Notes under the pieces: generated by a model
Database searches by the model: none
The model's input: only the letters and a program-made list of their open reading frames with translations
Told to the model about the DNA's origin: nothing
Made by a program: the position numbers and the translations under genes
Assembly (NCBI GenBank): GCA_030704615.1
Contig: CM060734.1
Span: forward strand, 7,254,001 to 7,318,000
DNA length: 64,000 nucleotides
Source: Takakia lepidozioides
Taxonomy: Eukaryota > Plantae > Bryophyta
Direction of reading: 5' to 3'
Shown: positions 5,762 through 28,304 of the stretch, piece after piece
Numbering within the stretch: position 1 is the first letter of the stretch
How the letters are laid out: each line of letters starts with the position of its first letter

Positions 5762-6113
5762 TGTCAAGTTAAATAAACACAGTGTGAAACTAACTAGAAT
5801 AAAGCTAGTTATTTGTATTTAACACTTGGATTTAGTCCAAGTGTTAAGTCAGGTGTCAAATTTAGTTTGACACCTGAACCGTCTTATCTTCACGAGAGCG
5901 TCAGTCGTGCGGCTCATCTCTCTCGAGTTGAGTCTGCACGACCGAGCTCCTTCATCGTTCAGAATCTGAGTGTGCTTATGAAGGGATGATAGGTTGTTGT
6001 GGGGTGGAGTCCCCATAGCTTGGGGTGCCCCTGGCTTGACTACTATTTTTAAAGAGTGATGGTGTTGGATTTCATGTTTCTTGTGTGAATAGTGTGTTCT
6101 TAGTTTTCTATCA
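5762..6113 (+). repeat. Terminal segment B of copy 2 (5' end)
   Basis: TGTCAAG...TATCA. Near-identical to 24609-24947 (which has a 13-bp deletion). Diverged relatives at 17298-17615 and 29532-29819. Confidence 0.9.
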
Positions 6114-6131
6114 CTCGAGAGAGATGAGCCG
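6114..6131 (+). promoter_or_regulatory. Putative self-complementary primer-binding site
   Basis: CTCGAGAGAGATGAGCCG directly after B is the exact reverse complement of 5910-5927. It does not begin with TGG. Confidence 0.7.
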
Positions 6132-6389
6132 ATCTAGTTTTCTAGTGCTAAGCTAGATATGATGTTTTTGTTTTTAAGCACTATTAGAATATAGCTTGGT
6201 CACGGGGAGCCTGCGGTTAGACTGGCTATGTGTGCCGAGTGGAGCAGAATAGGAAGGCGGAAACCATTTGAAGTGTTGCTGGGGATGCCCGTTTGTTTGA
6301 GGCTGGTGGAAGCATTCGCAGGGGTTGCCTACACATTCTCATTTTGGAGTATGCGCTATAGGTAATCCTGTTGCGGTGGGGGAATGCTT

Positions 6390-7850
6390 GTGCGTGAGCC
6401 TGTGAGCCCAGTCAGGCTCACGCCACGTCAGCAAGGTTTCCCACGTGCAAGACCTAATTCCGCGGATGCCACCTATTTCCACGGAACTGTAGGCGACTAC
6501 CACGCCCCAGATTTGCCAACATTAATTTCCAAGAAGTCTCATCCCTCATCCAAATCTTAGTCGGATGAGAAATCACGGGTGGTTTGTGGATGATTTTTGT
6601 CCACGGGCACAGGATATTTCAGAGAGTACAATGTCATGTTGCGTAATGAACACGAAGGAGAATGAGTTTGTTCTGACGAAGTTCCATCCCCCTAATTCAC
6701 ATCCACTTTTCATTGATAGACGTTCTCCAAACAAACACCAGGAAATCCCTAAAGCGTCTTTGCGGTTTATGAAAAAATATGGTGCAGAACAGGTTGGCAA
6801 GACTTACAATGCAAGACACGAAACGAAGAACAACAAGGCCAACAACCATACAAAATACAAAAAACAGTCCTAAAAAAAGAATGCTTTCATTTCTTAAATC
6901 AAGGTTGCGTCAACGCAAGGTTGATTTGCATCACCCCCCAGGGAGGAAAAAAAAAAAATCAAAAAATCAAAAAATGATGCTTTCATTTCTCAAATCAAGG
7001 TTGCGTCAACGCAAGGTTGAATTGCGTCACTCCCCAAGGAGAATATATATATATATATATTCAAAAAATGATGCTTTCATTCTCAAATCAAGGTTGTGTC
7101 AACGCGAAGGTTGATTTGCATCACTCCCCCCAAGGAGAAAGAAAAAGAAAAAATCAAAAAATCAAAAAATGATGCTTTCATTTCTCAAATCAAGGTTGCG
7201 TCAACGCAAGGTTGATTTGCATCACCCCCAGGGAGAAATAAAATATAAAAAATAAAATGAAATCGTATGTCTGTCGGTGTATGTCACGTCATCAATCGTG
7301 TTGTGCGTGCGTCTACCATTTGTTGCATTCGTTCCTCAAACTCATTTGTTCATTTGCGAACACATCAAGTCACATTCAAATGAACATTCTCGGAAATCAA
7401 CCTTGTGTTAATACAAAGTTGATTTCGAGAACTTCAAATCAACCTCATGTTAACACAAGGTTGATATCAGTTCTAGGAAATCAACCTCGTGTTAATACAA
7501 GGTTCATTTTAAGTTCTTTGAAATCAACCTCGTGTTAATATAAGGTTGATTTCAGTTCTAGGAAATCAACCTCGTGTTAATACAAAGTTCATTTCAAGTT
7601 CTCTGAAATCAACCTCGTGTTGACACAAGGTTGATCTCTGCGGACGCCCTAAACCCTTAACCCATCTCACCTTCAGATGGTGAAATCCCACGGTTATAGG
7701 CCCACCATCTTTGTGGTGACGTGGCACAACCTTGGGTGGGTTCATGCCACATCAGCACCAGCACCACGTCAACGTTGTGAGCGTAGGCTCACGCCACATC
7801 ACCATTGTGTGAGCGTACGCTCACACGCTCACACGCCAGGCTCACACGGT
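6390..7850. mobile_element. MITE-like non-autonomous insertion with internal palindromic repeats
   Basis: GTGAGCCTG / CAGGCTCAC inverted ends. Four AAATCAAGGTTGCGTCAACGCAAGGTTGA-type units (6895-7230) and about six AAATCAACCTCGTGTTAATACAAGGTTGATTTC-type units (7393-7635). No TSD resolved. Confidence 0.5.
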
Positions 7851-7899
7851 AGCGTCGTTGCTTGCGGTGGGGTCCTTGGTGTCAAAAGCAGGCTGCTGC

Positions 7900-9280
7900 G
7901 GTGGTGGGAGGATCAGCGTGGCCGCGGCGGATGGTTTTGCTGCAGAGCTCGTGATTCCCAAACGAGGGGATCAGCGTGATGGAATTCCAGCAAGGCAAGT
8001 GGGTTGTATCCACCCGTCGTTGCTTCCGGTATCATGCTTGCATCTCCCAGCACTAAGGGATGAGTGGCCGAGCTGTTGGGAGGGGGAAGCTTAGCGAGAA
8101 CCACATTGGCGTGATTGTAGAAGTTGGCGAGGTGGAGCAGGTCCGTTCAGACTGTGGATGTGCGGGCCGAACTTGACCAATCGATCAATGACAAGGGATG
8201 GAGGCTTATTGCACCATTGGAGACTCGCTTGTCATGTACAGGGAGAGGTAGTCGGTAGTGGCGAGGAGGTCGTATGCTTTCTTTACTTCTCCTTGCACCG
8301 CGGTCCCGGAGGCCATCTCCATGACGAACGCCATGTTGCCTTTCAAGAGCGCGATGCCATCGGTCGCAGGGTGTAGTAGTTCGATTTTGAGGATCCCATA
8401 CCACATCTTGTTTCTATGTTTTGTGAATGGCGTGATTGGATTGTACAAGACAGTTCCCAGGGGGCGGCTATGTCTTCATACCTGACTGCATGAGCTTCTG
8501 CTGGTGTGAATGTGGCTGCTAGGTGCTTTTACTGTAGGAATCCGAAGCATTTGAGCCTGATTCCAGGCCTAATCGCTGGTCTCGCATGTGCGTGGGCGGC
8601 TATGTCTTCATACCTGATTGCATGAGACCACATGAGACCCCCTGCTTGATACTCTGCATAGAAAAGGGTCTTGAATGCAAAGGTGCCCGACCAAGGAAGC
8701 CAGCCAGTTGGGTTAACAACTGCTCTCAAATGTACCGTGCGAGAATCTAATTTCCAGGGTCGCTCCATATACGTTGGGAACTGGTATGAATTCTTTTGTG
8801 AGATGGGTTGTTCCACCGAAGGTAAAGCGCTGGCAGGAAAAACCCCTATTTGATTTGGATGTATTCTACCCTGGGCCGCATATGTGTTTTGTTGGCGGAT
8901 CAAACCAGTCTCGGCCAAGATGGTGCATGTTTCAAACATTGCGGCTGCATGAATTGACGGTGCCATAGATTGTACAATCTTGGTAAAACCAACGGAAGAA
9001 GCAGCATACGTGGTCTTGGGAAATGATCAATGCACTGGTCTGATCCAGAAATTTCCCTTCCTGCATTATCGACATCAGTTCTGCCCAATAACCAAGCGAG
9101 TGTAGCTGTGGCACTTTGAACGTCAATTGAAAGGCTTGTAAGCTGGAATCTGATGCGGCTTGAAGAATCTGACCGTGGAGGGGTCAGATAAAAGGGAGCA
9201 GGGAAGGATGACAATTTAGGCATTAATGTGGTGTCATCTGAAACTGCCGGTCCCTTGAAGACAGAAGGGGCCCAGCTCAC
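7900..9280 (-). pseudogene. Degenerate antisense ORF of unknown function in the copy 2 leader
   Basis: Successive minus-strand protein-like ORFs (8900-9280, 8529-8966, 8206-8448, e.g. WYGILKIELLHPATDGIALLKG). A ~32-bp duplication at ~8463 and ~8595. Confidence 0.4.
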
Positions 9281-10135
9281 TACACGATCTGCTCGGCCTA
9301 TGTTAACAATCTAGAACTTGAGGGCAGCCTATGTCAATTCCATGTAAAGGCTTACACAATTAGTGATAGCGGATCTGTTGCTGCCACCTTGAAAAATCAG
9401 CACGCATGAAGGGCTGTAAGCGTTCTTGATCAAGTTATTAAGCTCTGGTGCTTTCCGGGGTTGCATTGTAAGTGCTCCTGCTTTTGTTGGGAATATTGGT
9501 GCAAAGGATTAAGGCTCGACATAGCCATAGGTCTCGGCTGGAGATGACAGCATCTGCGGATAGCAGTTCGGTGGGAGCTAGGAGGTAAGAAGCTGCAAGA
9601 TGGAGTGGAGGCGAAGGATCGAAGCTCGGGAGTCGGCATAGCTACGGATCTCGACTGGAGGAGAGCAGGTCACTGTGAACCAAGAGCTGTTGTGGTGCAT
9701 TTGTAAACACAATTGAAATCCTGGGAAATATAGGTCACGCTACCAGGGAGTCTGTGGTGAGAACTACATGAACACGTTTGGAACCTATTAAGATAACGTG
9801 GGAACAATGTTTAATGGCGAGAACGTTTTGGTGTTAAAAAATTTATTTAAAAAAAAAATAAAAAATAAAAATAAAAAACCTTTTTGATCTAATTTCAATT
9901 ATTTAGAGCCTAATTGGTCATATCTTTGTCAAATGGACTCTGTTTGACTCAGTTTTTGGGGGGATAGCTGCAGAAAGGGGAAATCTACCTATCTAGACCC
10001 GGTTTTAATTTTTTGGACTCTGCTAAAAATCTATGGAATTTTTTGAGTGTGAGTGTGCTATGAAAGATCCACAATTCTGTTTCTAGAACCTATTGTGGTC
10101 TACATGAGAGACAAATATGGGGATGTCCTCCTTGT

Positions 10136-10871
10136 ATGGCTGGGGGAAATGAGGACGTAATTGAAAGACAGGTCTCTTCTCTTAGCCTGTGCACACAAGG
10201 GGACAAGATTTATGTTTCTCAAGGAACTCAGACTGATTTGAGTGGAGACCAGTTGGACGAGTTGATTGCATACTGGGAGTCAGGCATTAGCAGTAGACAA
10301 CAAACTGCTGTAGTTGGCGTTGATGGCCTCAATATTGCTTTGGACAGTCAGAACTCTGTTGGAGCCAGCAGTTTTGCAGCTGTAGGTGAAATACCAAAGT
10401 GGGTGAAAGCTAGGCTTGGAACACAGCCAAAGACAGCCCCGGGGACCAAGGTGTTCAGCCACAAGGCCGTGGTGTACTGGAGCAGAGGAGCAGGAGCTAC
10501 ACAAGTTTGTGCAATCAGACATGGTTGTAGCCGGACACGCTCTGCACAAGGCAACCACCAGCGATGACAAGTTTGTTCTGCTTGAAGAAGATGCAATCAT
10601 TCGCAATGAGGACACCCGCAACCATCTCAAAGCTTTCGAGTTGAGAGACTGTCAGACCCTACCTTTATTTTCTTTAGTGTTCAGTGAGCGGGAGATAGGG
10701 GAGTATTGCTTTGTCTCTACCTGGCAGAAAGAGGAGGAGGGTTGGTTAGAGCGAGCTACTGTAGCTTGGGACAAGGTTAGTGGCAGGTTTCTGGACATAG
10801 ATATACCTCCTACACCTTACCATCATGCAGAGCGAGGCACTTTGAGAGAAGTCTGGCAGTTGATAGCATAG
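10136..10871 (+). pseudogene. Extra sense ORF upstream of gag (frameshifted, unknown function)
   Basis: Overlapping ORFs 10136-10567 and 10416-10871 with globular-protein composition, downstream of an AT-rich promoter-like tract (9830-9910). Confidence 0.4.
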
Positions 10872-11391
10872 ATCAGGATTAGATCTTGCTTGGTCGGGCT
10901 TCTATTCTTCCCCTCCCTCTCTTTACCATTTTCATTACTTTGTACTTGTAGTTGCCAAAGCCTCTCTTGGTGGAGGCCAGTCAGTCTGGGGTTTTGGGCT
11001 GGGATATTCTGCAGGATCAGCATTGCAGATGGATTTTGGTGTGGGGGTGTTGATGTTTTGATTTCTTGTGTTTGGATCCCCCCCAACACCTGCATGCTTG
11101 ACTGTGCGCCATGTTGGTTTTGTGTGGGCGCTTGCTTTCATAGGGATTAGGCCGGATTTGATCACCGATCAATCCTAGAGTATGCTGTCGGTGGTGAGGC
11201 TGGAGTGATGACCAGCAAGACCACCAGTGTTTCTTCTATGGTGAGACTGGGTTGATGACCAGCCAACCATAGGAGTTCTTGCGGTGGATGCAGGTGCAGG
11301 TGCCCTGAGCCACTGGGATATGACCCTTAAACTGCAACAGGTGCCCACCCGTGTCACTATTAGAATTAGTAATAGAGCCTTATAGTGTCAC

Positions 11392-11768
11392 GTGGGGGAG
11401 GTGCACATTGTGAGTGTCATCACGGAGTTACCCAAGGGTTTTGAGGGGAGTACGGCTACAGGCAGTAACAGTGAGAGTGGGTTCACAAGACGAGGTATTC
11501 GGTTCAGACCACCTTCACCTCCACCCTCAACTAGTGCAGAGTCAGACATAGACTCGAAGGCTTCATCAACAGGTGTGCAGTTTCATTCGCCATTGTTGTG
11601 GGACGACATGGAGGACATATATGGAGCTACCAAGGGGCCTCGTAGGTACTCTGGAGCTGTGGGCACAATTGAGCTGGATGACTTTATCCAGGAGTTCGAC
11701 AGCTGGTGTGATTTGCAGCAGATGCGCAATCCATAGCTGTTCACCCCATTCATGGCGTGGAAGGGACT
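11392..11768 (+). pseudogene. Copy 2 gag N-terminus (continues at 17782)
   Basis: YGATKGPRRYSGAVGTIELDDFIQEFDSWCDLQQMRNP matches 23-265. It rejoins as AWKGLFQHLEG across the copy 3 insertion. Confidence 0.88.
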
Positions 11769-12204
11769 TGTCGTGCGCATACATATTGCTACACAACTAC
11801 ATCGCTGTCCAAAACCACACAACACATGTGCACACCACACACTAGTATACCACTAGTCCACCACTAGTCCAACCACTAGGCTACAACTAGTCAGTCACTA
11901 GGCTGCCACTATGCTGCCCACTATGGTAGTCACTAGTCCACACAATCGCCCCCCTAGCTGGTGCTTAGGTCCCTCTAAGTCTAGGAAGCCACAAGATGTG
12001 ATAGTGACCATAGCCTCACTAAGTCCTCCACCACTATCCCTACTACACTCAAACTCGATAGATCAAGAGGCCGGGTGCAAGAGTTGCCCCATCATTAGTC
12101 GCCATCTTGCAACCTGTGAACTTGAGCTTGGGATCTCATGTATTGACTCCTATGAGCTTGGCCTCCCATGTCTTGTTAGCTGCCTCCAGTCATGTCCACT
12201 GCCA

Positions 12205-15181
12205 CTATCCCAAGCAGTGTGGACACAACCAATCTCCGTCAGGAACCTTCTCAAGAGGTGGTGTCAAGCATCCCATATGCCAACCCCTTGAGCATCGATC
12301 ACACACCAGCATGGTGGCTGCCCCTTTGGCAGACCCACAGAGCATGCACCTCAAACCTGCAGGTACCACTGCCAAGTTTGGGTCAACTCTGCCATCGACA
12401 TTGGGAAGGTGACATGGCGCACAATTACGCACATGGTCCTTCCAAGTCATGCCATCCCGACCCTCCAAGATCAGGACCCCTGAGAGCAACACCTCTCGAA
12501 CCCTCAGAATAACACGCCCTGCAGTAATATCCAAGGTCGTATGAGCAGTCTGCTGCAGATAGACGTAGTCACCAGGGTTGAATCTCCGAACCCCAGGACG
12601 ATAGCCCCCACCACGTATGGTAGCATACCTCAACGTATCACGATGTTGTGCAATGGCAAGGTTCTCGAAAGCCATGGGCATGACTTTCTTGAACAACTCT
12701 GCACGCTGCTCACATGCACGTGCCCACACGTCCGGATCGTCAAGATTAAGAACTGTAGCAGCTTCTCTGCGAATGGATGTAGGCAAATCCGGCTCTCGAC
12801 CAAAGAGAAGAAAGTATGGTGAGAAGGAGGCAAGTGATGCTTGCTTGCTGAACCTGTAGCCCATGGCTAACCAGGGTAACTGAAGGTCCCAATCTCCTAG
12901 GTGTCCCTTCTGCAAGCCATACTTGCGCAAACCCCTCTTTACTATCTGAACAACTCTCTCTGCCAAGCCATCGGCCTCAGGATGATCCCGAGAAGTGGTG
13001 CGGTGGTCTATCAAGGCCTTGTCACACAAAGCCTGAAACTCCCCCAAGAACTCTCTCCCTTGGTCCGTGAGTACCTCAGCTGGAGCACCGAATCGGCTAA
13101 GCACACAATCCAAGAATGCATACGCAGCTCCCTCACTAGCCTTATCAGGCAATGGAACCAACTCAATCCACTTGGAGAGAGTGCTCCACCATCACCAACA
13201 CGTACTTGTTGTGGCGCATGGTCAGTGGCAACGGCCCTGCGAAGTCAAGACTCCACCTGTAGCCCAATCCCATGATCGGAAGAGGGTGCAATTGTGGAGT
13301 AGGGGCGTTGAATGAAGCACGCACCCTGTCACACACCATGCACCTAGCCACAAATTGTTGCACCTCTGTGTGCATACCACGCCACCAATACTGCCCCTGC
13401 AGTAGACTATGAGTGCGTCGCACCCCAAAATGCCCTAACTCCTCATGGGCATGCCGCACTAACCGTGCCCGCTATGTTGGGTGAGGCACAATCCTCACTC
13501 GACCATCCTCCCACACTCGGAGCAGGTGTGTCCCCTCCCACTTGAACCTCTTGGCTCGTTGTAGGATCCGATCCCTCTCCTTGGCAGTCATAGTGGCTGC
13601 AGTGTCTCCAGTGCGAAGATAGTCCAACACAGCTGAATCCTCATGTATATCTTTGGCGCCACCTTGCTCATTGCTGGCCTCAGGGTCCTCAGACACTTGA
13701 TCTACGGTCATCCCTATTGCAGGTCCAACCTGGCCTTCCGCTGCCAAGATACACAGAAATGCAGATGCATGCCATCCGGGCACCATCTCCTCGTCCGTCT
13801 CACCATGCCACCGAGCTCCAGTGTCATCCTGTTGGCTCGTGCATGGATTGCGACTCAACCCATCTGCATTGCGATTGACCAAACCCGGTCGATGCACAAC
13901 CTGAAAGTCATATTCTTGAAGGATGAGTGCCCACCATGCAAGCTTCCCCGTAAGCTTGTCTGACTCCATCAACCACTTGAGTGGTTGGTGATCTGTGACA
14001 AGGGTGAAGAGATTACCGTATAGATAGGACCTGAAGTGTGCCACGGCCCACACTGCAGCTAAGCATTCTCCCTCATATGAGCTATACTTAGACTCTGCAA
14101 CGTTGTTCGAGCGGCTAACATAAGCCACTACAAACTCTCTTCCCTCATCATCCACCCGTGTGAGCACCGCTCCAAGCCCCAGCATGCTCCAATCTGTATG
14201 CAACTGAAAAGGACGCCCCCTAATAGGCCGTCTCAAGATGGGCGCCGAGGTCAACCTCGCCTTGAGCTCTTGAAAAGCTTGTTCTTGCTCATCTTCCCAC
14301 TGCCACTCCTGGTCCACCTTGGTCAGCTTGGTTAGAGCCTTTGTAATGGCACTAAATTCCTTAACAAACCGTCTATAATAGTTTGCTAACCCCATGAAAG
14401 CTCGAACTCGGCTCACATCCGTGGGGCGTGGAACCTGTGCAATGGACTCTACCTTAGTCTGCTGTACCCCCAATCCTCCAGGATATATCATGTGACCCAG
14501 ATACTCAATCTGGTTGTGGAAAAACTTGCACTTTCCCGGATGTAACTTTAATCGGTGCGCCCTCAAGCGCTCAAATACCCCCTGAAGGTGTCTCTCATGC
14601 TCTTCCACCGTAGCACTAAAGATAATGATGTCATCTATGTAGCACCGAGCAAACTCCACCCCTGCTAGAATCTTGTCCATGACTCTCTGAAACTCAGCAG
14701 GAGCGTTTTTAAGCCCAAATGGTAAGAACCGCCACTGGTATAGGCAATCCTTCCCGTGCTTATTGATCCCCCAGAATTCCATCTTTTGCTTATCCGCCTC
14801 CTTGATCGGCAACTGGTGATATCCGGATCGTAAATCCAACGTGCTAAAGACCTTGGCATGCCCAATGGCATCAAAGATCTCCTCTGGTGTCGGCATGGCA
14901 TACCTATTGGACTTGGTCTGACGATTTACAGGCCGGTAATCACCGCACATACGTCTCTCCGTCCAATTGCCATAGACATCCTTCTTGGCTGGCATCACTG
15001 TGGCTGAAGCATACTCTCCCCCAGATAGCTCCACCAAACCAGCCTCCCAAAGGTCCTGAGTTCTCATCTGAATCAAGGACCTCTCCATGTCACTGTATCT
15101 ATAGGGTCTCCGAAAGATTGACGTGTCAGTAGCCAATTCAATGCGAATCTCTTGACCCTTCAGTGCTCCTAAGTCCTTCAA
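12205..15181 (-). pseudogene. Copy 3 pol: RT, RNase H, integrase, PHD finger
   Basis: YIDDII; FQLHTDWS, TDHQPL, NADGLSR; HEELGH...CMVC, SLDFAG, LTDQGREF, GLAERVV; C-terminal CMLC..CDRC..WHMGC..WLCPHC. One stop (13472) and one frameshift (~13175). Confidence 0.92.
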
Positions 15182-15601
15182 ACTGAAGGCAAAGCAATTC
15201 CTGTAAGCCCTCAGGAACCACCGTATACGTCGTCTATCTCCGCTGGTGACAATGGGTCCAATGTCAGGCTCCCAATTGTCCTCCGTAACTGCAACCTTAA
15301 GTCCAGTGGGCTTAGAGGTAGAGGACGCGTCCCATGGTTGCTATGCCGCAACCTCTTGAGCAGTACTCCCTGCCTGCTTAGTCAATGACAAAGCCTCATC
15401 CTGCCCTATCATCTCATCCTTGAGGACCTCATCAACCCGAGAAGAATCCCCAACCTCATCCATCACAGCTGCCTTGGCTGCCAACTCCCTCTGAACCTCG
15501 AGCGCCTCCCACGTGTGCCATGGATGTCTACACCCCGTGGTCCTCACCGGCTCACCCCCACTCGCTGCCTGTACCGTCTCGGTAGGCAGAGAGACCGTCG
15601 A

Positions 15602-17218
15602 CGGGCATGGCAATGGATTGCGAGACTCGAGGTCGGGTCTGTTTTGGGAGATGGGGCGGTTTTGTGCCACTTGCAGCTTCATCAAGCTGTATCTCCAGCA
15701 TACATCTTGGAGAATGTGCCACTGATGGGCGATTCTCGGGCCAGGGTGATGGCCAGTGTGCATCAAGTCCGGTCGTGGCTTGGGTCAGCAGTGTTGCTGG
15801 ATGCAGCTGCAGTGGGATCACGGGCTCATCGTCCACAGCTATGGTGGACTAACTTGATGCCACCCGCACTGCTCAAGCGTGCATTTGATGGGGTGCAGCG
15901 GCCAGTACACCTCACAGTGGATAGCATTTTGGACATAGGGAGACAGTCTCAACGTGTGAGACACGATGACCGTTCACCTTTGGCAGTGGTCAACAGGGTG
16001 GGTCAACCACGAGCAACATTACCTACACTGCTCAGCTTCCCAGGATCCCATGCTTTTCGGGATGGTGGACCTGGCCTCCTGTGGGATGCTCAGTTGCAGC
16101 AGTTAGTGAAGCGTAATGCCGACGAGCGAGAGCGAGCTATGGGGTTTTCCACTGGGACCACGACGGTGCCTTCTCTTCCTGAGGTGATGAATGCCCTTGG
16201 CAGGGCCAACCTGCCACTACCAGATCAATGGAACCAACCCGCTCCAAATCCTGCGCCCCCAGTAACGAAATGTCTGCTGGCAAGCCCTGTTGATATCCAC
16301 GAATTGCAAACACCGACAACAACTCAGGGTACCGCTGCACCAACTGAGCAACATGGCGAAGTGAAACGCGTTGTGCAGTCTCATCCCTCTCCACATACAG
16401 GTAACGCCGAACTCGTACACCTGCCTGTAATACAGCAGCCAATCCAGTGCTGATCCCACCAAACAAGTCCAGAAGACAAATGCCTTCATCCGGATACTGC
16501 CACACAATAGGTGTGGTGTCCAATGGAGACAACTGAGGTGGTCCTGGTGCAATCCCCGCACTCTCCTCCTCTCCTGACGGTACAAAAGCCTCCACCTAGG
16601 CTTGTTGCACCCGTCGATCAGCATCTCGCTGCAAATCCTTGCTCGTGCCCCACAATGGAGTCTGAGCAACCATGGTAGGCAACTCCGCCATACCATACAT
16701 GTTATCCTGCTTCCCGGAGGTGGTACATCCTCTGAGTGAGCGTTGCCCTCAAGCAACTCTCTAGGCCAACTCACTGCCGTTGTGAATGCTGCTAGTATCG
16801 GCATCTTGCCTTGCTGGGCAACCGCAACTCCTCCTATGAACGTCACAGGGAGCTGCACACGCCGGCCCTCCCCTGACTGCCATGCAGGCCTATAGGAAGC
16901 TGACTCCTCCCAAAAATCCAGGGTGAAGCCCATGGGGTACAACACTGCCCCACCAACCAGGACATCGTATGAGACCGGGTCTGTCACAATGGCCTTGGCT
17001 CGCATCACTGAGCCATCTGTAGGGTGATCCGGCCGTAGTCTGATAGCCAACTCACGCCGTGTCATGCCCCGAGCTTGCTCCGATCCTCCCAGAGACGTCT
17101 GTATCTGGAAAGGACAAGGCTCCATATCCGCCTCCGTGAGGCCCAAGCCTGCAATAGCAGCTTTGCCCAGCATCAGTGGCTGAGCTCCCGAGTCCAACAA
17201 GACCCGCAGTGGCCGGTA
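15602..17218 (-). pseudogene. Copy 3 protease and DNMT, with DNMT motifs V-IX inverted onto the plus strand (15602-16183)
   Basis: Minus strand: LDSGAQPL, LLDLFGGISTG, IDLVVAGWPCQGHSS. Plus strand: GLRDSRSGLFWEM, YILENV, AHRPQLWWTNL, ERERAMGF. Confidence 0.88.
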
Positions 17219-17777
17219 CTAGTGTGTGGTGTGCACATGTGTTGTGTGGTTTTGGATAGCGATGTAGTTGTGTAGTGATATGTATGCGCACAACAGCTGT
17301 CAAGTTATTTTACCACTAGTGTGAAACTAGCTAGGAAAATAGCTAGCTTTTATATATTGACATTTGGGATTGGCCCAAGTGTCAATCCAGGGGTCAAGGC
17401 AGATTTAGGCCCTGGAGTGGTTATCTTCATGGCAAGCGCGGAAGGCTCATCTTTCTCGAGTTGAGCCTCACCGCACCTAGCTATGGCGCCGTAGTGTGGA
17501 TTCCCCATGGCGTGGGGTGCACTTGGCTTGACTTGTATTTGAGTGATGAGGTTATATATGCATGAGTTTATGCTTCAGATTTGTGAGCTCGTGCTTGTAT
17601 TCTTCTTCTTTATCACTCGAGAAAGATGAGCCTTCCGCGCTTGCTGGGAAGATAACCACTCTAGGGCCTAAATCTGCCTTGACCCCTGGATTGACACTTG
17701 GGCCAATCCCAAATGTCAATATGTAAAAGCTAGCTATTTCCTAGCTAGTTTCACACTAGTGGTAAAATAACTTGACA
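17217..17777. repeat. Partial A + GC + B followed by an inverted copy of the first ~163 bp of B
   Basis: A ends 17295, GC 17296-17297, B 17298-17615. Positions 17616-17777 are the near-perfect reverse complement of 17298-17460. Confidence 0.92.
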
Positions 17778-17781
17778 GACT

Positions 17782-20700
17782 GTTCCAGCATTTGGAAGGC
17801 CCGCCTATGGACGATTACCACGAGTTCAGGCGAGGACATGAAGCAGAGATTGAGGAGTGGAGGATGTATTGGTCACCTGACTACGTCTCCATTACTCGAG
17901 GCACGACGCGACCAGTAGCTGCATCAGCACCAATATCTCCCACTGCCAGCACTAGTAGTGGAACAAGTAGTGCCGGTACTTCTGCAGGTGGTACCAGTTC
18001 AAAAGGTGCTACTACTCCTCCTGCCACGACTACAACACATGTGCCTAGATTCAACCCGATGGTGGAGTTCTTCCAGGAGTTGCGGAGGAACTACCAAGGT
18101 GTACAGACAGAGAAGCTGCGAAGTTTGCAAGACTTCCAGCGCAAACCCAGTGAGAGCCTGCGAGAGGCGTACACTTGTATGAGGCGCTTGATAAGTGTGA
18201 CCCAAGGGGTTACTGAAGCTCAGGCAATCCAATTTTGGTATGGAATTTTGGACAAGGAGCTCAGGAGAAGGGTGCGGGATGCAACCCTGTTACAAGCAGC
18301 CCAACCCACATTAGCAGATGTGTTTATGCTGGCTGAGCGGATTGAGCTCAACATGGTGGAGGAGCGAGTTGTTACCATTGGATTTGGCAAAGACATGCCT
18401 ACACGAGGCGCAGCTACCAGCCCACAGGCACAAGGGACTGCCCAACAGCGTGGTCAGGGGGGCAAGGTTTCCCAACCCAAATTTCATGGAGCTTACAGGG
18501 GACCTCAGGTGCAGAGGCCAGTAGCATCTTTTGCAAGCCAACAGCAACCAGGGGTGATATGTTGGACATGTGGAGGACCCCATGTCAAGAGAGATTGCCC
18601 AGAGAGTGGCAAAAGGCCGGCACAAGCATAGCCTGCACAGTTGCAGTGTGGGCATTGTGGCAAGTATGGGCATGGAGATGCCCAGTGTTATGACTTGCAT
18701 CCTGAGGTGCGCCCAGGCCAGTTCCAAGGGAACAATGGTGGCCGGGGGTGAGCTGGACCAGCCCAGAGAGGACGAGGTGGCCGGGCATGAGGTGCAGGCC
18801 AAGGGCAAGCTCAACATGGCCAAGGACGCGGAGGTCAGGGTGTTGACCAAGGCATGGCCAACCGGCTTCAGCAGCTAGAGCAGAGGCTCGCTGCCATGGC
18901 TACAGCTCAGGTAGTACCGGCTCCCAGGCGAGATGGTCCACCTCCTGCTCTTAAGGGAGGAGATATGGGAGGCATGGGATTCATGTGCGGAGCAACACTA
19001 CCACTAGAGCAGGTGGAGTCTACTGCAGCCATGACTCAAGGAGCACAAGTTCCTGAGCCACGAGGTGCAAAAGTGGAGTTGGATCCACAATGTGGGGAGG
19101 TAAGCCGTTAGGCGAGGCTTCCTCAGTCATTCACATTGGTGGAGATAGTGTCGACGCCATCCATGGCACCTAGTTCTCGCCCGACTGTTATCGAGGCGGA
19201 GGTTACTATGCCATTGGGGAGAGCTATCCGTGCATCACTGACACCTGCTGCCAAGGCTAGTGCAGCCGGTGTGTTATTGGGGGCAGCCACCTCTGTGTGT
19301 CAAGCCCCACTGTTCTCGGCAACCATGATTGCGACGCCGGGGGTAAGACCAACTGCAGTGTTCAGACTAGCAGCAACACTCTGTGAGAATAGGGAGGTCA
19401 CTTCATCTTCTGCGGAGTTACTGGAAGGTGTAGTGGCAGAGCGATCCTCGGATTTGAGGGTTAAGACTGCCACGGCTGCGCCATGGCAAGCTGCAGCTGC
19501 CAAGTTAACGGAGCTGTCAGCTAGGCCAGCCTTTGAGCGCGCCATGGTGACACCTGGAGTTGTCTTGTTGGACAACCAGGATGACATTTTCTCTTTGAGT
19601 GGACCGGCAGGCAAGAAGTACCGGTTACTGCGGGTCTTGTTGGACTCGGGAGCTCAGCCACTGATGTTGGGCAGAGCTGCTATTACAGGTTTGGGCCTTA
19701 TGGAGGCGGATATGGAGCCTTGTCCTTTCCAGACAGACATCTCTGGGAGGATCAGAGCAGGCTCGGGGCATGACACGGCGTGAGTTGGCCATTAGACTGC
19801 AGCCGGATCATCCTATAGATGGCTCAGTGATGCAAGCCAAGGCCATTGTGACAGACGCGGTCTCTTACGATGTCCTCGTTGGTGGGGCAGTGTTATATCC
19901 CATGGGCTTCACCCTGGACTTTTGGGAGGAGTCAGCATCCTACAGGCCTGGATGGCAGTCAGGGGATGGTCGTCGTGCACAGCTCCCTGTGACATTCATT
20001 GGGGGTATTGCGGCTGCCCAGCGGGGCAAGATGCCAACACTAGCCGCCTTTACAGCTGCAGTTAGTTGGCCTGGAAAGTTGCTGGAAGGCAATGCCCATG
20101 CAGAGGATGTGTCACCTTCAGCAGAGCAGGATGACATGCATAGTACGGCGGAGTTGCCTGCCATGGTTGCTCATACTCCAATTGTGGGGTACGAGCAAGG
20201 ATTTGCAGCAGGCTGCTGATGGACGGGTGCAACAAGCCTGGGTAGAGGCCTTCGTACCGTCAGGAGAAGAGGAGAGTGCGGTGATTGCACCAGGACCACC
20301 TCAGTTGTCGCCATTGGATACCACACCTCTTGTGTGGCAGTGCCTGGATGAAGGCATATGCCTTCTGGACTTGTTTGGCGGGATCAGCACTGGATTGGCT
20401 GCAGTGCTGCACGCAGGTGTACAAGTTCAACGTTACCTGTATGTAGAGAGGGATGAGACTGCACGACGCATCTCACTACGCCATGTTGCTCAGTTGGTAC
20501 AGCAGTACCCTGATTTGTTGCCAGTGTCTGCAGTTCGTGGATACCAACAAGCCTTGCTAGCAGACATTTCGTTGCTGGGGGCGCAGGATTTGGAGCAGGA
20601 TGGCTCCATTGATCTGGTAGTGGCAGGTTGGCCCTACCAAGGGCATTCATCAGCCGGGCATGGCAATGGATTGCGAGACTCGAGGACGGGTCTGTTTTGG

Positions 20701-23700
20701 GAGATGGTGCGGGTTTTGCGCCACTTGCAGCTTCATCAAGCTGTATCTCCAGCATACATCTTGGAGAATGTGCCACTGATGGGTGATTCTTGGGCCAGGG
20801 TGATGGCCAGTGTGCATCAAGTCCGGTCGTGGCTTGGGTCAGCAGTGTTGCTGGATGCAGCTGCAATGGGGTCACAGGCTCATCATCCACGGCTATGGTG
20901 GACTAACTTGATGTCACCCGCACTGCTCAAGCGTGCATTTGATGGGGTGCAGCGGCCAGTACACCTCACAGTGGATAGCATTTTGGACATAGGGAGACAG
21001 TCTCAACGTGTGAGACACGATGACCGTTCACCTTTGGCAGTGGTCAACAGGGTGGGTCAACCACGAGCAACATTACCTACACTGCTCAGCTTCCCAGGAT
21101 CCCATGCTCAAGAGGTTGCAGCATAGCAACCACGAGACGCGTCTTCTATCTCTAAGCCTGCTGGACTCAAGGTTGCAGTCACGGAGGACAACTGGGAGCC
21201 TGATGTTGGACCTATAGTCACCGGAGGAGAGAGATGACGTATACGGCGGTTCTTGAGGGCTTACAGGAACTGCTTTGCCTTCAGTTTGAAGGACTTAGGA
21301 GCACTGAAGGGTCAAGAGATTCGCATTGAATTGGCTACTGACATGCCAATCTTTCGGAGACCCTATAGATACAGTGACATGGAGAGGTCCTTGATTCAGA
21401 TGAAAACTCAGGACCTTTGGGAGGCTGGTTTGGTGGAGCTATCTGGGGGAGAGTATGCTTCAGCCACAGTGATGCTAGCCAAGAAGGATGTCTATGGCAA
21501 TTGGACGGAGAGACGTATGTGCGGTGATTACCGGCCTGTAAATCGTCAGACCAAGTCCGATAGGTATGCTATGCCGACACCAGAGGAGATCATTGATGCC
21601 ATTGGGCATGCCAAGGTCTTTAGCACTTTGGATTTACGATCCGGATATCACCAGTTGCCGATCAAGGAGGCGGATAAGCAGAAGACGGCATTCAGGGGGA
21701 TCAATGAGCACGGGAAGGATTGCCTTTACCAGTGGCGGTTCTTACCATTTGGGCTTAAGAACGCTCCGGCAGAGTTTCAGAGAGTCATGGACAGGATTCT
21801 AGCAGGGGTGGAGTTTGCTTGGTGCTACATAGATGACATCATCATCTTTAGGGCTACGGTGGAGGAGCATGAGAGACACCTTCAGGGGGTATTTGAGCGC
21901 TTGAGGGCGCACGGATTGAAGTTACATCCGGGAAAGTGCAAGTTTTTCCACAACCAGATTGAGTATCTGGGTCACATGATATATCCTGGAGGATTGGGGG
22001 TACAATAGACTAAGGTAGAGTCCATTGCACAGATTCCACGCCCCACGGATGTGAGCTGAGTTCGAGCTTTCATGGGGTTAGCAAACTATTATAGACGGTT
22101 TGTTAAGGGATTTAGTGCCATTACAAAGGCTCTAACCAAACTGACCAAGGTGGACCAGGAGTGGCAGTGGGAAGATGAGCAAGAACAAGCTTTTCAAGAG
22201 CTCAAGGCAAGGTTGACCTCGGCGCCCATCTTGAGATGACCTATCAGGGGGCAGCCTTTTCAGCTGCATACGGATTGGAGCATGCTAAGGCTTGGAGCGG
22301 TGCTCACACAGGTGGATGATAAGGGAAGAGAGTTCGTAGTGGCTTATGCTAGCCGCTCGAACAACGTTGCAGAGTCTAAGTATAGCTCATATGAGGGAGA
22401 ATGCTTAGCTGCAGTGTGGGCCGTGGCACACTTCAGGTCCTATCTATACGACAATCTCTTCACCCTTGTCACGGATCACCAACCACTCAAGTGGTTGATG
22501 GAGTCAGACAAGCTTATGAGGAAGCTTGCACGGTGGGCACTCATCCTTTAAGAATATGACTTTCAGGTTGTGCATCGACCGGGTTTGGTCAATTGCAATG
22601 CAGATGGGTTGAGTCGCAATCCATGCACGAGCCAGCAGGATGACACTCGAGCTCGGTGGCATGGTGAGATGGACGAGGAGATGGTGCCCGGATGGCATGC
22701 ATCTGCATTTCTATGTATCTTGGTGGCGGAAGGCCAGGTTGGACCTGCAACAGGGATGGCTATAGATCAAGTGTCTGAGGACCCTGAGGCCAGCAATGAG
22801 CAAGGTGGCACCAAAGATATACATGAGGATTCAGTTGTGTTGGACTACCTCCGCACTGGAGACACTGTAGCCACTATGACTGCCAAGGAGAGGGATCGGA
22901 TCTTACAACGAGCCAAGAGGTTCAAGTGGGAGGGGACACACCTGCTCCGAGTGTGGGAGGATGGTTGAGTGAGGATTGTGCCTCACCCAACACAGCAGGC
23001 ACGGTTAGTGCGGCATGCCCATGAGGAGTTGGGACATTTTGGGGTGCGACGCACTCATAGTCTACTGCAGGGGCAGTATTGGTGGCGTGGTATGCACACA
23101 GAGGTGCAACAATTTGTGGCTAGGTGCATGGTGTGTGACAGGGTGCGTGCTTCATTCAACGCCCCTACTCCACAATTGCACCCTCTTCCGATCATGGGAT
23201 TGGGCTACAGGTGGAGTCTTGACTTCGCAGGGCCGTTGCCACTGACCATGCGCCACAACAAGTACGTGTTGGTGATGGTGGAGCACTCTCTCCAAGTGGA
23301 TTGAGTTGGTTCCATTGCCTGATAAGGCTAGTGAGGGAGCCGCGTATGCATTCTTGGATTGTGTACTTAGCCGATTCGGTGCTCCAGCTGAGGTACTCAC
23401 GGACCAAGGGAGAGAGTTCTTGGGGGAGTTTCAGGCTTTGTGTGACAAGGCCTTGATAGACCACCGCACCACTTCTCGGGATCATCCTGAGGCCGATGGC
23501 TTGGCAGAGAGAGTTGTTCAGACAGTAAAGATGGGTTTGCGCAAGTATGGCTTGCAGAAGGGACACCTAGGAGATTGGGACCTTCAGTTACCATGGTTAG
23601 CCATGGGCTACAGGTTCAGCAAGCAAGCATCACTTGCCTCCTTCTCACCATACTTTCTTCTCTTTGGCCGAGAGCCGGATTTGCCTACATCCATTCATAG

Positions 23701-24262
23701 AGAAGCTGCTACAATTCTTAACCTTGACGATCCGGACGTGTGGGCATGTGCATGTGAGCAGCGTGCAGAGTTGTTCAAGAAAGTCATGCCCATGGCTTTC
23801 GAGAACCTTGCCATTGCACAACATCGTGATACGTTGAGGTATGCTACCATACGTGGTGGGGGTTATCGTCCTGGGGTTCGGAGATTCAACCTTGGTGACT
23901 ATGTCTATCTGCAGCAGACTGCTCCTACGACCTTGGATGTGACTGCAGGACGTGTTATTTTGAGGGTTCGAGAGGTCTTGCCCTCAGGCGTCTTGATCTT
24001 GGAAGGTCGGGATGACATAACTTGGAAGGACCATGTACGTAATTGTGCGCCATGTCACCTTCCGAATGTCGATGGCAGGATTGACCCAAACCTGGCAGTG
24101 ATATCTGCAAGTTTGAGGTGCATGTTGTGTGGGTCTGCTAAAGGGGCAGCCACCATGCTGGTGTGTGATCGATGCTATAGAGGTTGGCATATGGGATGCT
24201 TGACTCCACCTCTCGAGATGGTTCCTGATGGGGATTGGTTATGTCCGCATTGCATTGGATAG
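17782..24262 (+). pseudogene. Copy 2 polyprotein: Gag, Zn knuckles, protease, DNMT (~20350-21105), RT, RNase H, integrase, PHD (~24119-24253)
   Basis: ORFs 17792, 18854 and 19136 share one frame across point stops. LLDSGAQ; LLDLFGGISTG, GWPYQGHS, YILENV, HHPRLWWTNL; YIDDII; integrase DDE core; C4HC3 PHD. Confidence 0.92.
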
Positions 24263-24510
24263 TGGGAGTGGATACAACTATGGAAGGCCAACAAGAAATG
24301 CAAGGCCAAGCTACTAGGAGACCTTGAACACATGAGATCTTGGCTCAAGTTCACAGATTGCAAGACGGCAACTAATGATGGGGTTACTCTTGTACCCGGC
24401 CTCTTGGTCTATAGAGTTTGAGTACAATAGGGACAGTGATAGAGGACTTAGTACGGCTGTGGCTATTACATCTTGTAGCAACTGGAGTTAGAGGGACCTA
24501 TCCACCAGCT

Positions 24511-25033
24511 AGGGGGGCGATTGTGGTAGACTACTTTATTGTGTATATATGTGTGGTGTAGTTTGGACAGCGATGTAGTTGTGTAGCGATATGTACGCGT
24601 ACGATAGCTGTCACAGTGTGAAACTAACTAGAATAAAACTAGTTATTTGTATTTAACACTTGGATTTAGTTCAAGTATTAAGTCAGGTGTCAAGTTTAGT
24701 TTGACACCTGAACCGTCTTATCTTCACGAGAGCGTCAGTCGTGCGGCTCATCTCTCTCGAGTTGAGCCTGCACGACCGAGCTCTTTCATCGTTTAGAATG
24801 TGAGTGTGCTTATGAAGAGATGATAGGTTGTTGTGGGGTGGAGTCCCCATAGCTTAGGGTGCCCCTGGCTTGACTACTATTTTTAAAGAGTGATGGTGTT
24901 GGATTTCATGTTTCTTGTGTGAACAGTGTGTTCTTAGTTTTCTATCATTGTGGCAGACTACTTTATTGTGCATATATGTGTGGTGTAGTTTGGACAGCGA
25001 TGTAGTTGTGTAGCGATATGTATGCGCACGACA
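24511..25033 (+). repeat. Copy 2 3' end: PPT - A (24522-24606) - GC - B (24609-24947) - T - A (24949-25033)
   Basis: Two 85-bp A copies flank a B copy. PPT AGGGGGGCGA at 24511-24520. Confidence 0.9.
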
Positions 25034-27395
25034 CAAGGCTAGACTTTGTCTGGTGCTACATTGATGACATCATCATCTTTAGTGCCACGGTTGAGGAGCA
25101 TGAGAGACACCTTCAGGTGATGTTTGAGCGCTCAAGGGCACATGGATTGAAACTGCACCCTGGAAAGTGCAAGTTCTTCCATGATCAGATTGAGTATCTG
25201 GGCCCCATGATATACCTTGGAGAATTGGGTGTTCAATAGACAAAGATGGAGGCCATTGCACGTATTCCATGCCCCATAGATGTAAGCAGAGTTCGTGCTT
25301 TCATGGGGTTGGCAAACTACTATCGTCGGTTTGTCAAGGGATTTAGCAGCATTGCGAAGGCTCTTACCAAGTTGACCAAGGTGGGTCAGGAGTGGCAGTG
25401 GGAGGAGGAGCAGGAGGAAGCCTTTGAGGAACTCAATGCTCGATTGACTTCTGCACCTATTCTGACCTGCGGCCTATTCGGGGGCGGCCTTTCCAGCTAC
25501 ATACGGATTGGAGTATGCTGGGGATTGGAGCAGTGCTCACATAGGTGGATGATGAGGGAAGAGAGTTCGTAGTGGCATATGCTAGCCGCTCAAACAATGA
25601 TGCTGAGGCGAAGTATAGCTCATATGAAGGGGAATTTCTAGTTGCAGTATGGGCAGTGACACATTTCAGATGCTACCTCTATGACAATCTCTTCACCCTT
25701 GTCACGGATCACCAACCATTGAAGTGGTTGATGGAGTCAGACAAGCTTACAGGGAAGCTTGCATGGTGGCACTTATGCTTCAAGAGTACGCTTCCAGGTG
25801 GTGCGTTGAGCTGGAATAGTCAACCGGGATGCGGATGGATTGAGTCGCAATCCATGCACAAGTGAGCTTGATGATACAGGAGTTGACATGGTGAGACGGA
25901 TGAGGAGATGGTGCCAGGATGGCACGCATCTGTCTTTTTGTGCATTCTAGCAATGGGAGCTCAAGCTGGTCCATCCCATAGGATTGGTCATGTAGATGGT
26001 GTGCATGACGATCCGGAGATAAGTGAGGAGCTTGGTAGTGCTAAGGATGTGCATGAAGATGCAGCAGTGTTGGCTTATCTTCGTGCCGGAGAGACAGCAG
26101 TCAGTGTGACTGCGAAGGAGAGCGATCGGATCCTACAACGAGCCAAGAGGTTCAAGTGGGAGGGGACTCACCTACTCCATGTATGGGAGGATGGACGAGT
26201 GAGGATTGTGCCTCATCCAACACAACGAACGCGATTGGTACACCATGCCCATGAGGAGTTGGGACATTTTGGGGTGCGACGCACTCATAGTTTGCTGCAA
26301 GGGCAGTACTAGTGGCGGGGCATGCACACAGATGTGCAGCAGTTAGTGGCAAGATGCATGGTATGTGATAGAGTGCGGGCTTCTTTCAACGCCCTTACTC
26401 CACAATTGCATCTTTTACCCATTATGGGTTTGGGCTATCGTTGGAGCCTTGACTTCGCAGGCTCATTGCCACTAACGATTCGCCATAACAAGTATGTGCT
26501 GGTGATGGTGGAACACTTCTCCAAATGGATTGAACTAGTGGCATTGCCTGACAAGGCAAGTGAGGGGGCCGTGTATGCATCTTAGATTGAGTTCTTAGCC
26601 GATTCGGTGCTCTAGCCGAGGTACTCACGGTCTAGGGGAGAGAGTTCTTGGAGGAGTTTCAGGCTTTGTGTCAGCAAACCTTGATAGACCACCGCACTAC
26701 TTCTCGGGATCATCCTGAGGCTGATGGCTTGGCGGAAAGAGTTGTTCAGACAGTCAAGAGAGGCTTCCGCAAGTATGGCTTGCAAAAGGGACACTTAGGG
26801 GATTGGGACCTTCAGCTACCTTGGTTGGCCATGGGCTATAGGTTTAGCAAGCAAGCATCACTTGCCTCGTTCTCACCTTACTTTCTTCTCTTCGGTCGAG
26901 AGCCAGATTTGCCTGCATCTATTCGCAGTGAGGCTGCAGTAGTCCTTGACCTTGATGATCCAGATGTGTGGACACGCGCATGTGATCAGCGGGCAAAGTT
27001 GTTCAAGAGAGTCTTGCCTATGGCTTTTGAGAACCTTGCTATTGCCCAACACTGAGACACATTGAGGTATGCCACCATACGTGGAGGCGGATATCAACCG
27101 GGTGTTCGGAGATTCAACCCTGGGGACTATGTGTATCTGCAGCAGATAGCGCGTACGACCTTGGATGTCATAGCAGTGCAATTGTGCGCCATGTCACCTC
27201 CCACATGTGGATAGGAAGATAGATCCTAATCTTGCAGTGGTACCTGCAGGGTTGCGTTGCATGCTGGTGGTGCCACAACCATGTTGGTGTGTGACAAATG
27301 CTTAAGGGGGTGGCACATGGGATGTTTAACACCGCCACTTGAGGAGGTTCCTAGCAGAGAGTGGTTGTGTCCACGATGCCTTGGACAGAGGTAGT
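25034..27395 (+). pseudogene. Copy 1 pol 3' half: RT, RNase H, integrase, PHD
   Basis: WCYIDDII, TDHQPL, HEELGHFG, EHFSKWIE, GLAERVV and a partly deleted PHD. Many stops and frameshifts. Confidence 0.9.
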
Positions 27396-28304
27396 GGGCA
27401 TGGCAATGGTGAGGCTGATAAGTGATCCAAGGTCTAGCTAGTGGGGCTTCAATGCCATGGATACTCAACTGAAGATCATGGACCAACTTTTGCACCCAGC
27501 CTCTTGATCTATTGACTTTAGATGTTGGGACTTGTGCAATTGAAGACCAAGCGATGATCTTATTGAGATGGATACTTGTCGGCTATCCGGTGTTAGAGGG
27601 ACCTAATCACCAGCTAGGGGGCGGTTGTGGCATAGCTTTCTAGGATTGTATGCTTAGAATGTGTGATGGACAACGATGAATATTGTGGCATGATGCTTAG
27701 GTGCACGACAGAGATTACAGAAGGGATTTGGGGGTATTACCTCATGAGAGACATTATGAGTGATGAAAGAGGAAAAATAAGAGAGAAATATTCAACAAAA
27801 ACATAAAGCTATTTAAAAGCTAACTATCCACGGTTCTGGGAAAGGGGAATAGACGTAGGAGAATCATTTGAACCTCTTAGTCCACCTAAACTAGGGGAAA
27901 CACCACCTTTGTATGAAGATCCTTTATCTGGAACCACACCTTCTTACTCTTTACAGGAAAGACTGCGATATTTAGAAAAAGAAGAAGAAAGACCACAGGA
28001 AAATAGACCAGAAATAAACCCATGGGCAAGGGATTTGACAGAATTATATGAGCAGAGCTGGCATGACCTACACCAAAAGGGGGAACACCAAGTTCTCAAA
28101 CACCTATCAATGAAAAGGATGAGGAGGAGGATGCTGGTGGGAGTACTGACTCTCAGCTTGCAACACATTTAAGCATAGTTAGTGAGAATGAAGAACCTCA
28201 AGATGTCAAAATCTTGAGAGAACCAGAAGTGGAGATAGAGCCAGTAGAGACTGAAGGATCAGGCACTGGAGGACCCTTACTTCCTGCAGCAGAGAGAGAG
28301 ATGG

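Follow-up and report, generated by a model that had tools for sequence, protein, structure and literature searches.

Nested copies of a Ty3/gypsy retrotransposon family with a DNMT3-type methyltransferase in the bryophyte Takakia lepidozioides

Nested copies and their methyltransferase

A stretch of 64,000 nucleotides from Takakia lepidozioides (assembly GCA_030704615.1, contig CM060734.1, positions 7,254,001 to 7,318,000 of the forward strand), here called the window, was analysed for a Ty3/gypsy retrotransposon family that carries a cytosine-5 (C5) DNA methyltransferase (DNMT) between its protease (PR) and its reverse transcriptase (RT). Copies of this one family are nested within the window: copy A is interrupted by copy C, and copy C by copy B. 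Copy A is cut within its RT at 5761 and the RT reading picks up again at 25034, beyond copy C, in the part called copy D. The Pfam matches in the copies are to a C5-methyltransferase, RT, RNase H (RH), integrase (INT) and a C-terminal PHD finger, and the gypsy organisation is present, with the order Gag-PR-RT-RH-INT, a DDE integrase, a polypurine tract (PPT) and a target duplication. Two kinds of terminal repeat, A and B, bound the copies. The first-pass annotation had placed the element at 17782-24262, an extent that does lie inside copy C and is merely a part of it. The features are as follows.

25..5761, plus strand: left half of copy A, with interrupted gag, PR, DNMT (3812-4717), the stop TAG-CAA-TCA at 5092 and the start of RT
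25034..27709, plus strand: copy D, that is, the right half of copy A, with the remaining RT, RH, INT, PHD finger, PPT and a single repeat B
5762..25033, plus strand: whole of copy C, filling the gap in the RT of copy A; flanks CAGG and CAAG (3/4 bases match)
5762..6113, plus strand: left repeat A1 of copy C and left insertion end, TG start and CA end; 96.7% identity with 24612-24947
6114..6131, plus strand: primer binding site of copy C as predicted for self-priming; its 18 nt are fully complementary to repeat A at position 148
11590..11768, plus strand: N-terminal part of copy C gag, its translation matching the start of Marchantia open reading frame (ORF) 1; cut by copy B, resuming at 17778
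11769..17777, minus strand: copy B, nested in copy C gag, rearranged; GACT at both flanks
17778..19546, plus strand: remaining copy C gag with zinc knuckles (knuckle at 18647) and several stops; tblastn to Marchantia protein P0004 and metagenome locus L002
19547..20000, plus strand: aspartic protease of copy C, frameshifted; LDSGA at 19640
20338..21108, plus strand: DNMT3-type C5-methyltransferase of copy C, motifs I-VIII (PF00145, E 1.3e-9; alignment)
21124..21132, plus strand: conserved in-frame stop TAG-CAA-CCA of copy C between DNMT and RT, in a readthrough-type context
21217..22581, plus strand: RT and RNase H of copy C (RVT_1, E 1.6e-33)
22990..23875, plus strand: DDE integrase of copy C; HHCC at 23014, core from 23276
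24101..24262, plus strand: PHD finger at the integrase C-terminus of copy C (PF00628, E 1.7e-10)
24500..24520, plus strand: PPT of copy C, immediately 5' of repeat B1
24521..25033, plus strand: right end of copy C, with B1 (24521-24607), the B/A junction, A2 to 24947 and B2 (24948-25033) ending in GACA

Copy B contains PR, a DNMT with an inverted C-half, the stop at 15343, RT, RH, INT, a PHD finger and one repeat B at its 3' end.

As had been proposed from the letters alone, C5-methyltransferase motifs sit at the same place, between the protease (LDSGA) and RT, in 3/3 window copies; the full set is present in 0/3. Copy A (plus strand, ~3812-4717) has motifs I at 3839, II at 3911, IV at 4097, IX at 4616 and X at 4685, as well as VIII, with a stop right after motif IV and motif VI deleted. 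In copy B (minus strand) motif I lies at 16469, II at 16397 and IV (GWPCQ) at 16211; its C-terminal half is flipped to the plus strand (~15560-16183), with VI at 15710, VIII as HRPQLWW and IX at 16130, and X is lost. Within 15560-17777, this copy has an internal inversion that runs through its methyltransferase. Copy C (plus strand) retains I at 20368, II at 20440, VI at 20764 and VIII as HHPRLWW, its motif IV reads GWPYQ, with Tyr in place of the catalytic Cys, and it has lost IX and X by deletion. The profile check suggested by the first-pass annotation bore it out for copy C, which matches PF00145 with 38.4 bits (cut-off 22); copies A and B, scanned as their stop-free pieces, gave no match on their own.

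Marchantia, Calypogeia, Sphagnum and Klebsormidium yielded homologues, of which 28 proteins were longer and 108 of near length, and 80 metagenome loci were used, being the best 80 of 245. Since these loci were picked by DNMT patterns including the catalytic motif, motif counts in them are biased and uninformative on the rate of domain loss. The protease precedes the DNMT in 63/80 loci and RT lies close behind it in 53/80. A profile of 55 family members matched DNMT3A (6e-27) better than DRM (7e-17), HhaI (8e-10) and DNMT2 (8e-5), and aligns to DNMT3A linearly from motif I to motif X, which is true of the family and of no single window copy. Motifs I, IV, VI, VIII, IX and X are kept across 55 relatives. 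In locus L002, Gag-PR-DNMT-stop-RT-RH-INT share a single frame that spans 6.5 kb and has just one further stop, and the structure model of its stop-free DNMT domain has a pLDDT (predicted local distance difference test) of 96.3. The matches listed for this model by Foldseek were all DNMT3A, B or C, the best being DNMT3A (E 1.6e-20, template-modelling score 0.73). In Marchantia, the Gag-PR-DNMT proteins P0004, P0488, P0495 and P0496 (1278-1281 aa) have all tested motifs. By profile and predicted fold, the domain is thus confirmed as a non-permuted DNMT3-type C5-methyltransferase within a Ty3/gypsy family, the assignment first made from motif wording. A phage origin found no support, as viral contigs yielded 16 distant phage methyltransferases with 26-50% identity and partial coverage.

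The ratio of nonsynonymous to synonymous divergence (dN/dS) in the DNMT is 0.109 for A versus C, 0.093 for A versus B, 0.104 for C versus locus L001 and 0.165 for L001 versus L002, and the RT value (0.112, C versus D) is similar to that of DNMT between diverged copies. These values are approximate, since between lineages dS approaches or reaches saturation. Another four DNMT pairs were saturated. In close pairs the ratio is raised alike in DNMT and RT (0.375 versus 0.381 for C and B; 0.347 versus 0.516 for L001 and locus L004), as expected from decay after insertion. A dN/dS of about 0.1, as opposed to the neutral evolution that the first-pass annotation had named as a counter-case, supports the view that the DNMT domain is under purifying selection.

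Several observations concern the nested copies themselves. The stretch between the left repeat and gag of copy C measures 5.5 kb, with tandem repeats at 6873-7638, as compared to only ~1.2 kb in moss-type copies, and it holds a pectinesterase gene fragment (8529-9026, minus strand; PF01095, E 9.5e-22); it probably represents a nested element with a piece of a host gene. The gag of copy A contains an inserted gypsy RT (266-1950), distant and on a long branch, whose flank matches 43772-44122. The interval 17292-17784, considered as a miniature inverted-repeat transposable element, was ruled out as such, being the rearranged left end of copy B.

Repeat ends, priming and integration

Inserted copies begin with repeat A (~340 nt, starting with TGTC) and end with repeat B (~90-115 nt, ending with GACA). 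The layout A-internal-B-A-B is found in copy C and six loci, and a single terminal B in ten loci and in copies B and D. Two full identical long terminal repeats (LTRs) at the ends were not found, the ends reading A...B-A-B or A...B; the interval 24522-24948, a candidate for an ordinary LTR, was ruled out and consists of B+A repeats. Judged from these ends and its coding order, the element works like gypsy yet is not a canonical LTR element. A 4-bp target duplication was present in 8/8 complete elements among the loci, 7 of them perfect, with one duplication around the whole A...B unit, and the PPT lies immediately 5' of the first B.

The bases just after the left repeat A are complementary to a stretch within A, over 18 nt without mismatch in copy C. 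In the moss-type loci, 12-16 of 16 bases pair at one site in 16/22 cases, against a control mean of ~9 and control maxima of 11-14. The primer stretches of the window and moss-type copies are unlike in sequence and each pairs with its own site. A self-complementary primer site is described as the hallmark of Tf1-type self-priming (PMC4600332; this and the other cited sources are used as far as their available text goes), and self-priming from the complementary stretch in repeat A is very likely here on the pairing found. The left-end fold-back of copy B begins at the predicted self-primer stretch; together with the internal inversion of this copy, it may be a reverse-transcription error.

Taken together, the A-internal-B(-A-B) ends, the 4-bp duplications and the self-complementary primer site suggest self-priming and integration from an end-joined circle. 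Ordinary reverse transcription yields B-A...B-A, and the inserted form therefore requires that the left B be shifted to the right end. Joining of the cDNA ends into a circle, followed by a cut at the internal B/A junction, which reads GACA-nn-TGTC, would shift the left B rightward. From the repeat layout, integration after end-joining of the cDNA, with the integrase cutting this junction, appears reasonably likely. The same ends might arise without a circle, by tandem insertion, post-insertion recombination or a template switch in reverse transcription, which we consider rather unlikely. Two observations speak for such routes: ten loci have a single terminal B and six have B-A-B, and the mirror form A-B-A-internal-B, expected from a symmetric two-repeat circle, was seen in 0/23 left ends (20 distinct). 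Circles are, moreover, dead ends for retroviruses (PMC3148978). On the other side, one 4-bp duplication spans the whole A...B unit in both forms, and the A pairs and B pairs are equally diverged (A1/A2 88.7-94.5%, B1/B2 90.3-92.2%). Also, the A/B join is blunt in 6/7 cases and has filler and a PPT remnant in the remaining one (locus L013), the kind of trace that end-joining would produce.

The stop ahead of the reverse transcriptase and the role of the enzyme

An in-frame TAG lies between DNMT and RT in 3/3 window copies, at 5092 in A, 21124 in C and 15343 (minus strand) in B. The bases after it are CAA-CCA in B and C and CAA-TCA in A, all of which fit CAR-YYA. Among the loci, every one that aligns over the site has the stop (55/55, comprising 46 distinct sequences), as TAG in 38 and TAA in 17. 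The Marchantia proteins P0004, P0488, P0495 and P0496 all terminate at the place matching it, ahead of RT. The Klebsormidium-type proteins P0129, P0026 and P0027 also stop, 27 residues past motif X, and some Closterium proteins continue through. In sequencing run X1, 720 contigs cover the copy B junction with no alternative letter at 2% or more across the nine bases, and six nearby positions vary. The family is abundant in the host: 76,095 contigs of this run map on copy C and fill all 30 bins, the DNMT included.

Given that the stop between DNMT and RT is conserved, the enzyme belongs to the Gag-PR frame and not simply to Pol, contrary to the first-pass annotation, which had the methyltransferase as a plain part of Pol. 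Since it closes the Gag-PR frame, its predicted dose is at the level of Gag, in excess over RT; the stop after the enzyme thus moves the expected dose from Pol to Gag level. This dosage is not universal: DNMT and RT share one ORF in several relatives of algal type, and in 20 others the DNMT comes after RNase H, a variation that counts against the explanation given next.

We lean slightly towards an overall explanation in which a Gag-PR frame ends in the DNMT3-type enzyme, the RT part is produced by readthrough, and the enzyme is packaged in excess over RT and likely methylates new cDNA. Most ribosomes would make Gag-PR-DNMT, and a minority would continue into RT-RH-INT-PHD. Packaged in the particle, the methyltransferase would be released there by the protease and would methylate the self-primed cDNA before insertion; the methylated cDNA would then be circularised, cut at B/A and inserted. 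The most plausible gain would be camouflage, or chromatin set in advance where the copy lands, which was proposed for DIRS elements (PMC5890265). The narrower claim that the enzyme acts on the element's own cDNA or insertion site has about even odds. A tentative extension is that the enzyme serves to give the new copy the look of resident, methylated chromatin, and that the PHD finger of the integrase binds tails of histone H3 at the target. The PHD finger of copy B matched best, in a search of the PDB, those of CHD4, PHF12, KDM5A/B, ATXR5, DPF, PHF21A, BAZ2, UHRF1 and AIRE. Fingers of these kinds mostly bind the unmodified H3 tail, like the ADD domain of animal DNMT3, and the finger may have a targeting role.

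Some results weigh against this overall explanation. None of the window copies is intact. In yeast, the Klebsormidium enzyme failed to methylate DNA, an outcome that its authors deem inconclusive (PMC5890265). The CpG ratio of the family is 0.44-0.54 (0.27 in L002) and that of another Ty3 element in the window 0.89, but an unrelated stretch resembling a long interspersed nuclear element (LINE) has 0.43; because it is equally depleted, CpG depletion is not a specific sign of self-methylation. The domain may instead be kept for another role, by working in trans on the host's chromatin or on competing elements, by damping the element itself to spare the host, by targeting RNA, or as a structural component of the particle. 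Such a role would fit the lack of activity of the algal enzyme in yeast, the authors' suggestions of RNA methylation (for a LINE enzyme) and of host benefit (PMC5890265), a Gag-level amount that would be more than one cDNA needs, and the lack of a family-specific CpG signature. We nevertheless hold it to be rather unlikely: the motifs I, IV, VI, VIII, IX and X are conserved over 55 relatives, the fold matches listed are all DNMT3A/B/C with DNMT2 much weaker in the profile search, and fusion to Gag places the enzyme in the particle, the site of cDNA synthesis.

As for the RT part, production of RT-RH-INT-PHD by readthrough of the conserved stop is likely from its context and spacing. CAR-YYA after UAG is the readthrough signal of tobacco mosaic virus (TMV), with 32% readthrough in a plant reporter (PMC2754532). 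The strict form follows the stop in 3/3 window copies, in L002 (TAG-CAA-CCA) and in locus L030. Several points tell against readthrough. The moss-type context CAA-CCC misses CAR-YYA at the last base in 53/55 loci (CAACCC 53, CAACTC 1, CAACCA 1), an in-frame ATG follows it, also compatible with re-initiation, and the TAG could possibly serve as a splice acceptor. A conserved RNA structure 3' of the stop was not found in the 5 sequences folded (z +1.0 to -2.1). The stop-CAA-CCC-ATG arrangement would suit a route in which RT-integrase is translated by re-initiation or comes from an RNA that is spliced or separate, the TAG being an ordinary stop or a splice acceptor and the DNMT still residing in the Gag-PR product. 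Such a route could also draw on a T-rich run 5' of the TAG in moss-type loci and on the two-ORF layout (Gag-PR / rest) that exists in some plant lineages (PMC6317226). We regard it as doubtful. DNMT-RT pairs are in the same frame in 40/54 cases, and the frame is preserved across the stop at three spacer lengths (mostly 315 nt, 357 in L002 and 441 in locus L071). An in-frame ATG after the stop is absent in copies A and C and in L002, and in copy B the ATG is out of frame and a minority state. The CAA after the stop is shared by lineages with non-alignable linkers. No splice joint at the stop was found among the contigs of four runs, none of which is recorded as RNA and whose contigs cannot reveal splicing or expression.

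The remainder of the window holds other elements. The Ty3 element with the CpG ratio of 0.89 (32342-41450, minus strand) is without DNMT, its RT groups with angiosperm elements, and its ends are long tandem repeats of 53/106/208-bp units. A 553-aa open frame (29842-31503, minus strand) with Cys/His clusters and no Pfam match adjoins a B+A repeat fragment (29532-29868) and gives the impression, no firmer than that, of a DNA-transposon transposase. LINE-like endonuclease/RT remnants lie at 47493-51034 and 60640-62056, and a gag-like zinc-knuckle ORF at 44954-46219.

Lineage and comparison with known systems

Relatives of the element occur in Klebsormidium, Coleochaete, Closterium, Marchantia, Calypogeia and Sphagnum, and a profile search of a representative protein library gave 427 matches at E 1e-30 or better. 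Klebsormidium matches include P0129 for the DNMT (35%, E 2.8e-22), which we infer to be the KnitGypsy-Dnmt3 product, and P0165, P0201 and P0221 for RT. A quick, midpoint-rooted RT tree was built from 124 rows, that is, 115/121 proteins (6 dropped for short RT) and 9 window or locus rows. In this tree, copies B and C fall together with Marchantia and the moss-type loci (8 rows, support 93), the next to join is Coleochaete P0138 (11 rows, support 90), and a 93-row clade (SH-aLRT 99) includes the window copies, Marchantia, Coleochaete, Closterium and Klebsormidium, leaving out the gypsy elements of angiosperms and animals as well as the other Ty3 of the window. A DNMT tree of 62 rows, without host DNMT3, places the window copies with Marchantia, Calypogeia and Sphagnum (16 rows, 99) on a poorly supported backbone. 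RT and DNMT distances are concordant over the 34 proteins with both domains (Spearman 0.615, 0/2000 shuffles), and the DNMT sits at the same position in liverwort, moss and algal elements.

Because RT and DNMT relatives are present in Klebsormidium, Closterium and Coleochaete, the copies represent a branch of a published lineage and not a new capture, in keeping with the charophyte link first proposed. On these sequence comparisons they are, with high probability, a decayed land-plant branch of the KnitGypsy-Dnmt3 lineage, which we read as having descended along with its streptophyte hosts. Broken window copies, and a DNMT tree that formally still allows separate captures from host DNMT3, might suggest a domain that is carried along neutrally or was acquired independently in this host; this is largely refuted by the RT tree, the dN/dS of ~0.1, the shared position and the agreement of distances, and is highly improbable.

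Some relatives deserve separate mention. In a sister group of 20 proteins in the range P0208-P0253, this DNMT lies between RNase H and integrase rather than before RT; most of its members retain the PHD finger, and P0214 also has a weak D12 adenine-methyltransferase match (E 0.004). P0246 and P0247 are gypsy polyproteins outside the clade, with a PHD finger and PF05869, which we take to be a Dam-type adenine methyltransferase. One member of the P0140 cluster, within the clade, is labelled 'uncultured Synechococcales cyanobacterium' in NCBI and is probably plant DNA in a metagenome bin. P0488 and P0489 are near full-length Marchantia Gag-PR-DNMT ORFs with Mp_Vg names, presumably denoting the male V chromosome.

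In the literature searched, with most subscription papers outside its reach, no description of the element in bryophytes, of its readthrough site or of its integration route was found. The available text of PMC5890265 has neither 'Marchantia' nor 'PHD', nor a readthrough, self-priming or circle model (its figures could hold more). Later work names the hosts just as 'streptophytes' (PMC12344493; bioRxiv 10.64898/2026.05.21.726589), and the bioRxiv study treats the streptophyte Gypsy-DNMT3 as a separate acquisition, its available text containing neither 'bryophyte' nor 'land plant'. In the text available for a survey of plant LTR elements (PMC6317226), 'methyltransferase', 'homeodomain' and 'Marchantia' are absent, and a hornwort chromatin paper, as far as available, has host DNMT3 only (PMC10952607). 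What is new is that the DNMT is not simply a part of Pol, with a stop after the enzyme; this kind of element as such is already published for a charophyte.

The full chain, in which a streptophyte lineage loads its own DNMT3 at capsid stoichiometry, self-primes, forms a circle, has a DDE integrase cut the internal att site and delivers pre-methylated DNA to PHD-selected chromatin, is a doubtful proposition as a whole. If true, a DDE integrase would here take the route through a circle, which has been disproven for retroviruses. The benefit to a retrotransposon of an enzyme that silences it was left open in 2018 (PMC5890265), and the several complete Gag-PR-DNMT frames in Marchantia, annotated as hypothetical, make the question testable in a model land plant. 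The DNMT counts of bryophyte annotations are also inflated by such genes.

The closest known system is KnitGypsy-Dnmt3 of Klebsormidium nitens, reported with DIRS-like repeats, purifying selection, the gypsy domain set and a non-permuted, intronless DNMT3 placed in the Pol ORF (PMC5890265, de Mendoza et al. 2018). The family described here shares the gypsy domains, the non-permuted, intronless DNMT3, the purifying selection and, as compared with the text of that paper, the DIRS-like repeat layout; it differs in that its hosts are land plants and in that a stop parts DNMT from RT in all land-plant-type copies. SymbioDIRS-Dnmt3, whose enzyme methylates CG de novo in yeast (PMC5890265), SymbioLINE-Dnmt and EpiLTR/DAM-LTR are likewise retrotransposons with DNA methyltransferases, of other element classes or DNMT clades (PMC5890265; bioRxiv 10.64898/2026.05.21.726589). 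With TMV-type readthrough, all three window copies and L002 share UAG followed by CAR-YYA (PMC2754532; PMC3441728); the retrotransposon cases consulted have the leaky stop between gag and pol, here it comes after protease and methyltransferase, and the moss-type family differs by its CAA-CCC. As in the self-priming elements Tf1, Tj1 and Tcn1, the left repeat contains a stretch complementary to the sequence that directly follows the repeat, and the family differs from them by a 16-18 nt pairing, an integrase with a PHD finger and ends displaced to mid-repeat (PMC4600332; PMC6317226).

Permuted ends of this sort evade tools that seek paired LTRs, and they point to a possible circle-based route for a DDE integrase. 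The A-internal-B-A-B layout is otherwise that of the split-direct-repeat elements with a tyrosine recombinase (Ngaro, PAT and VIPER), in which it points to a circular intermediate. The present family has the same layout and differs from these in its DDE integrase, its 4-bp target duplication and its TG...CA ends, and it is without a recombinase.

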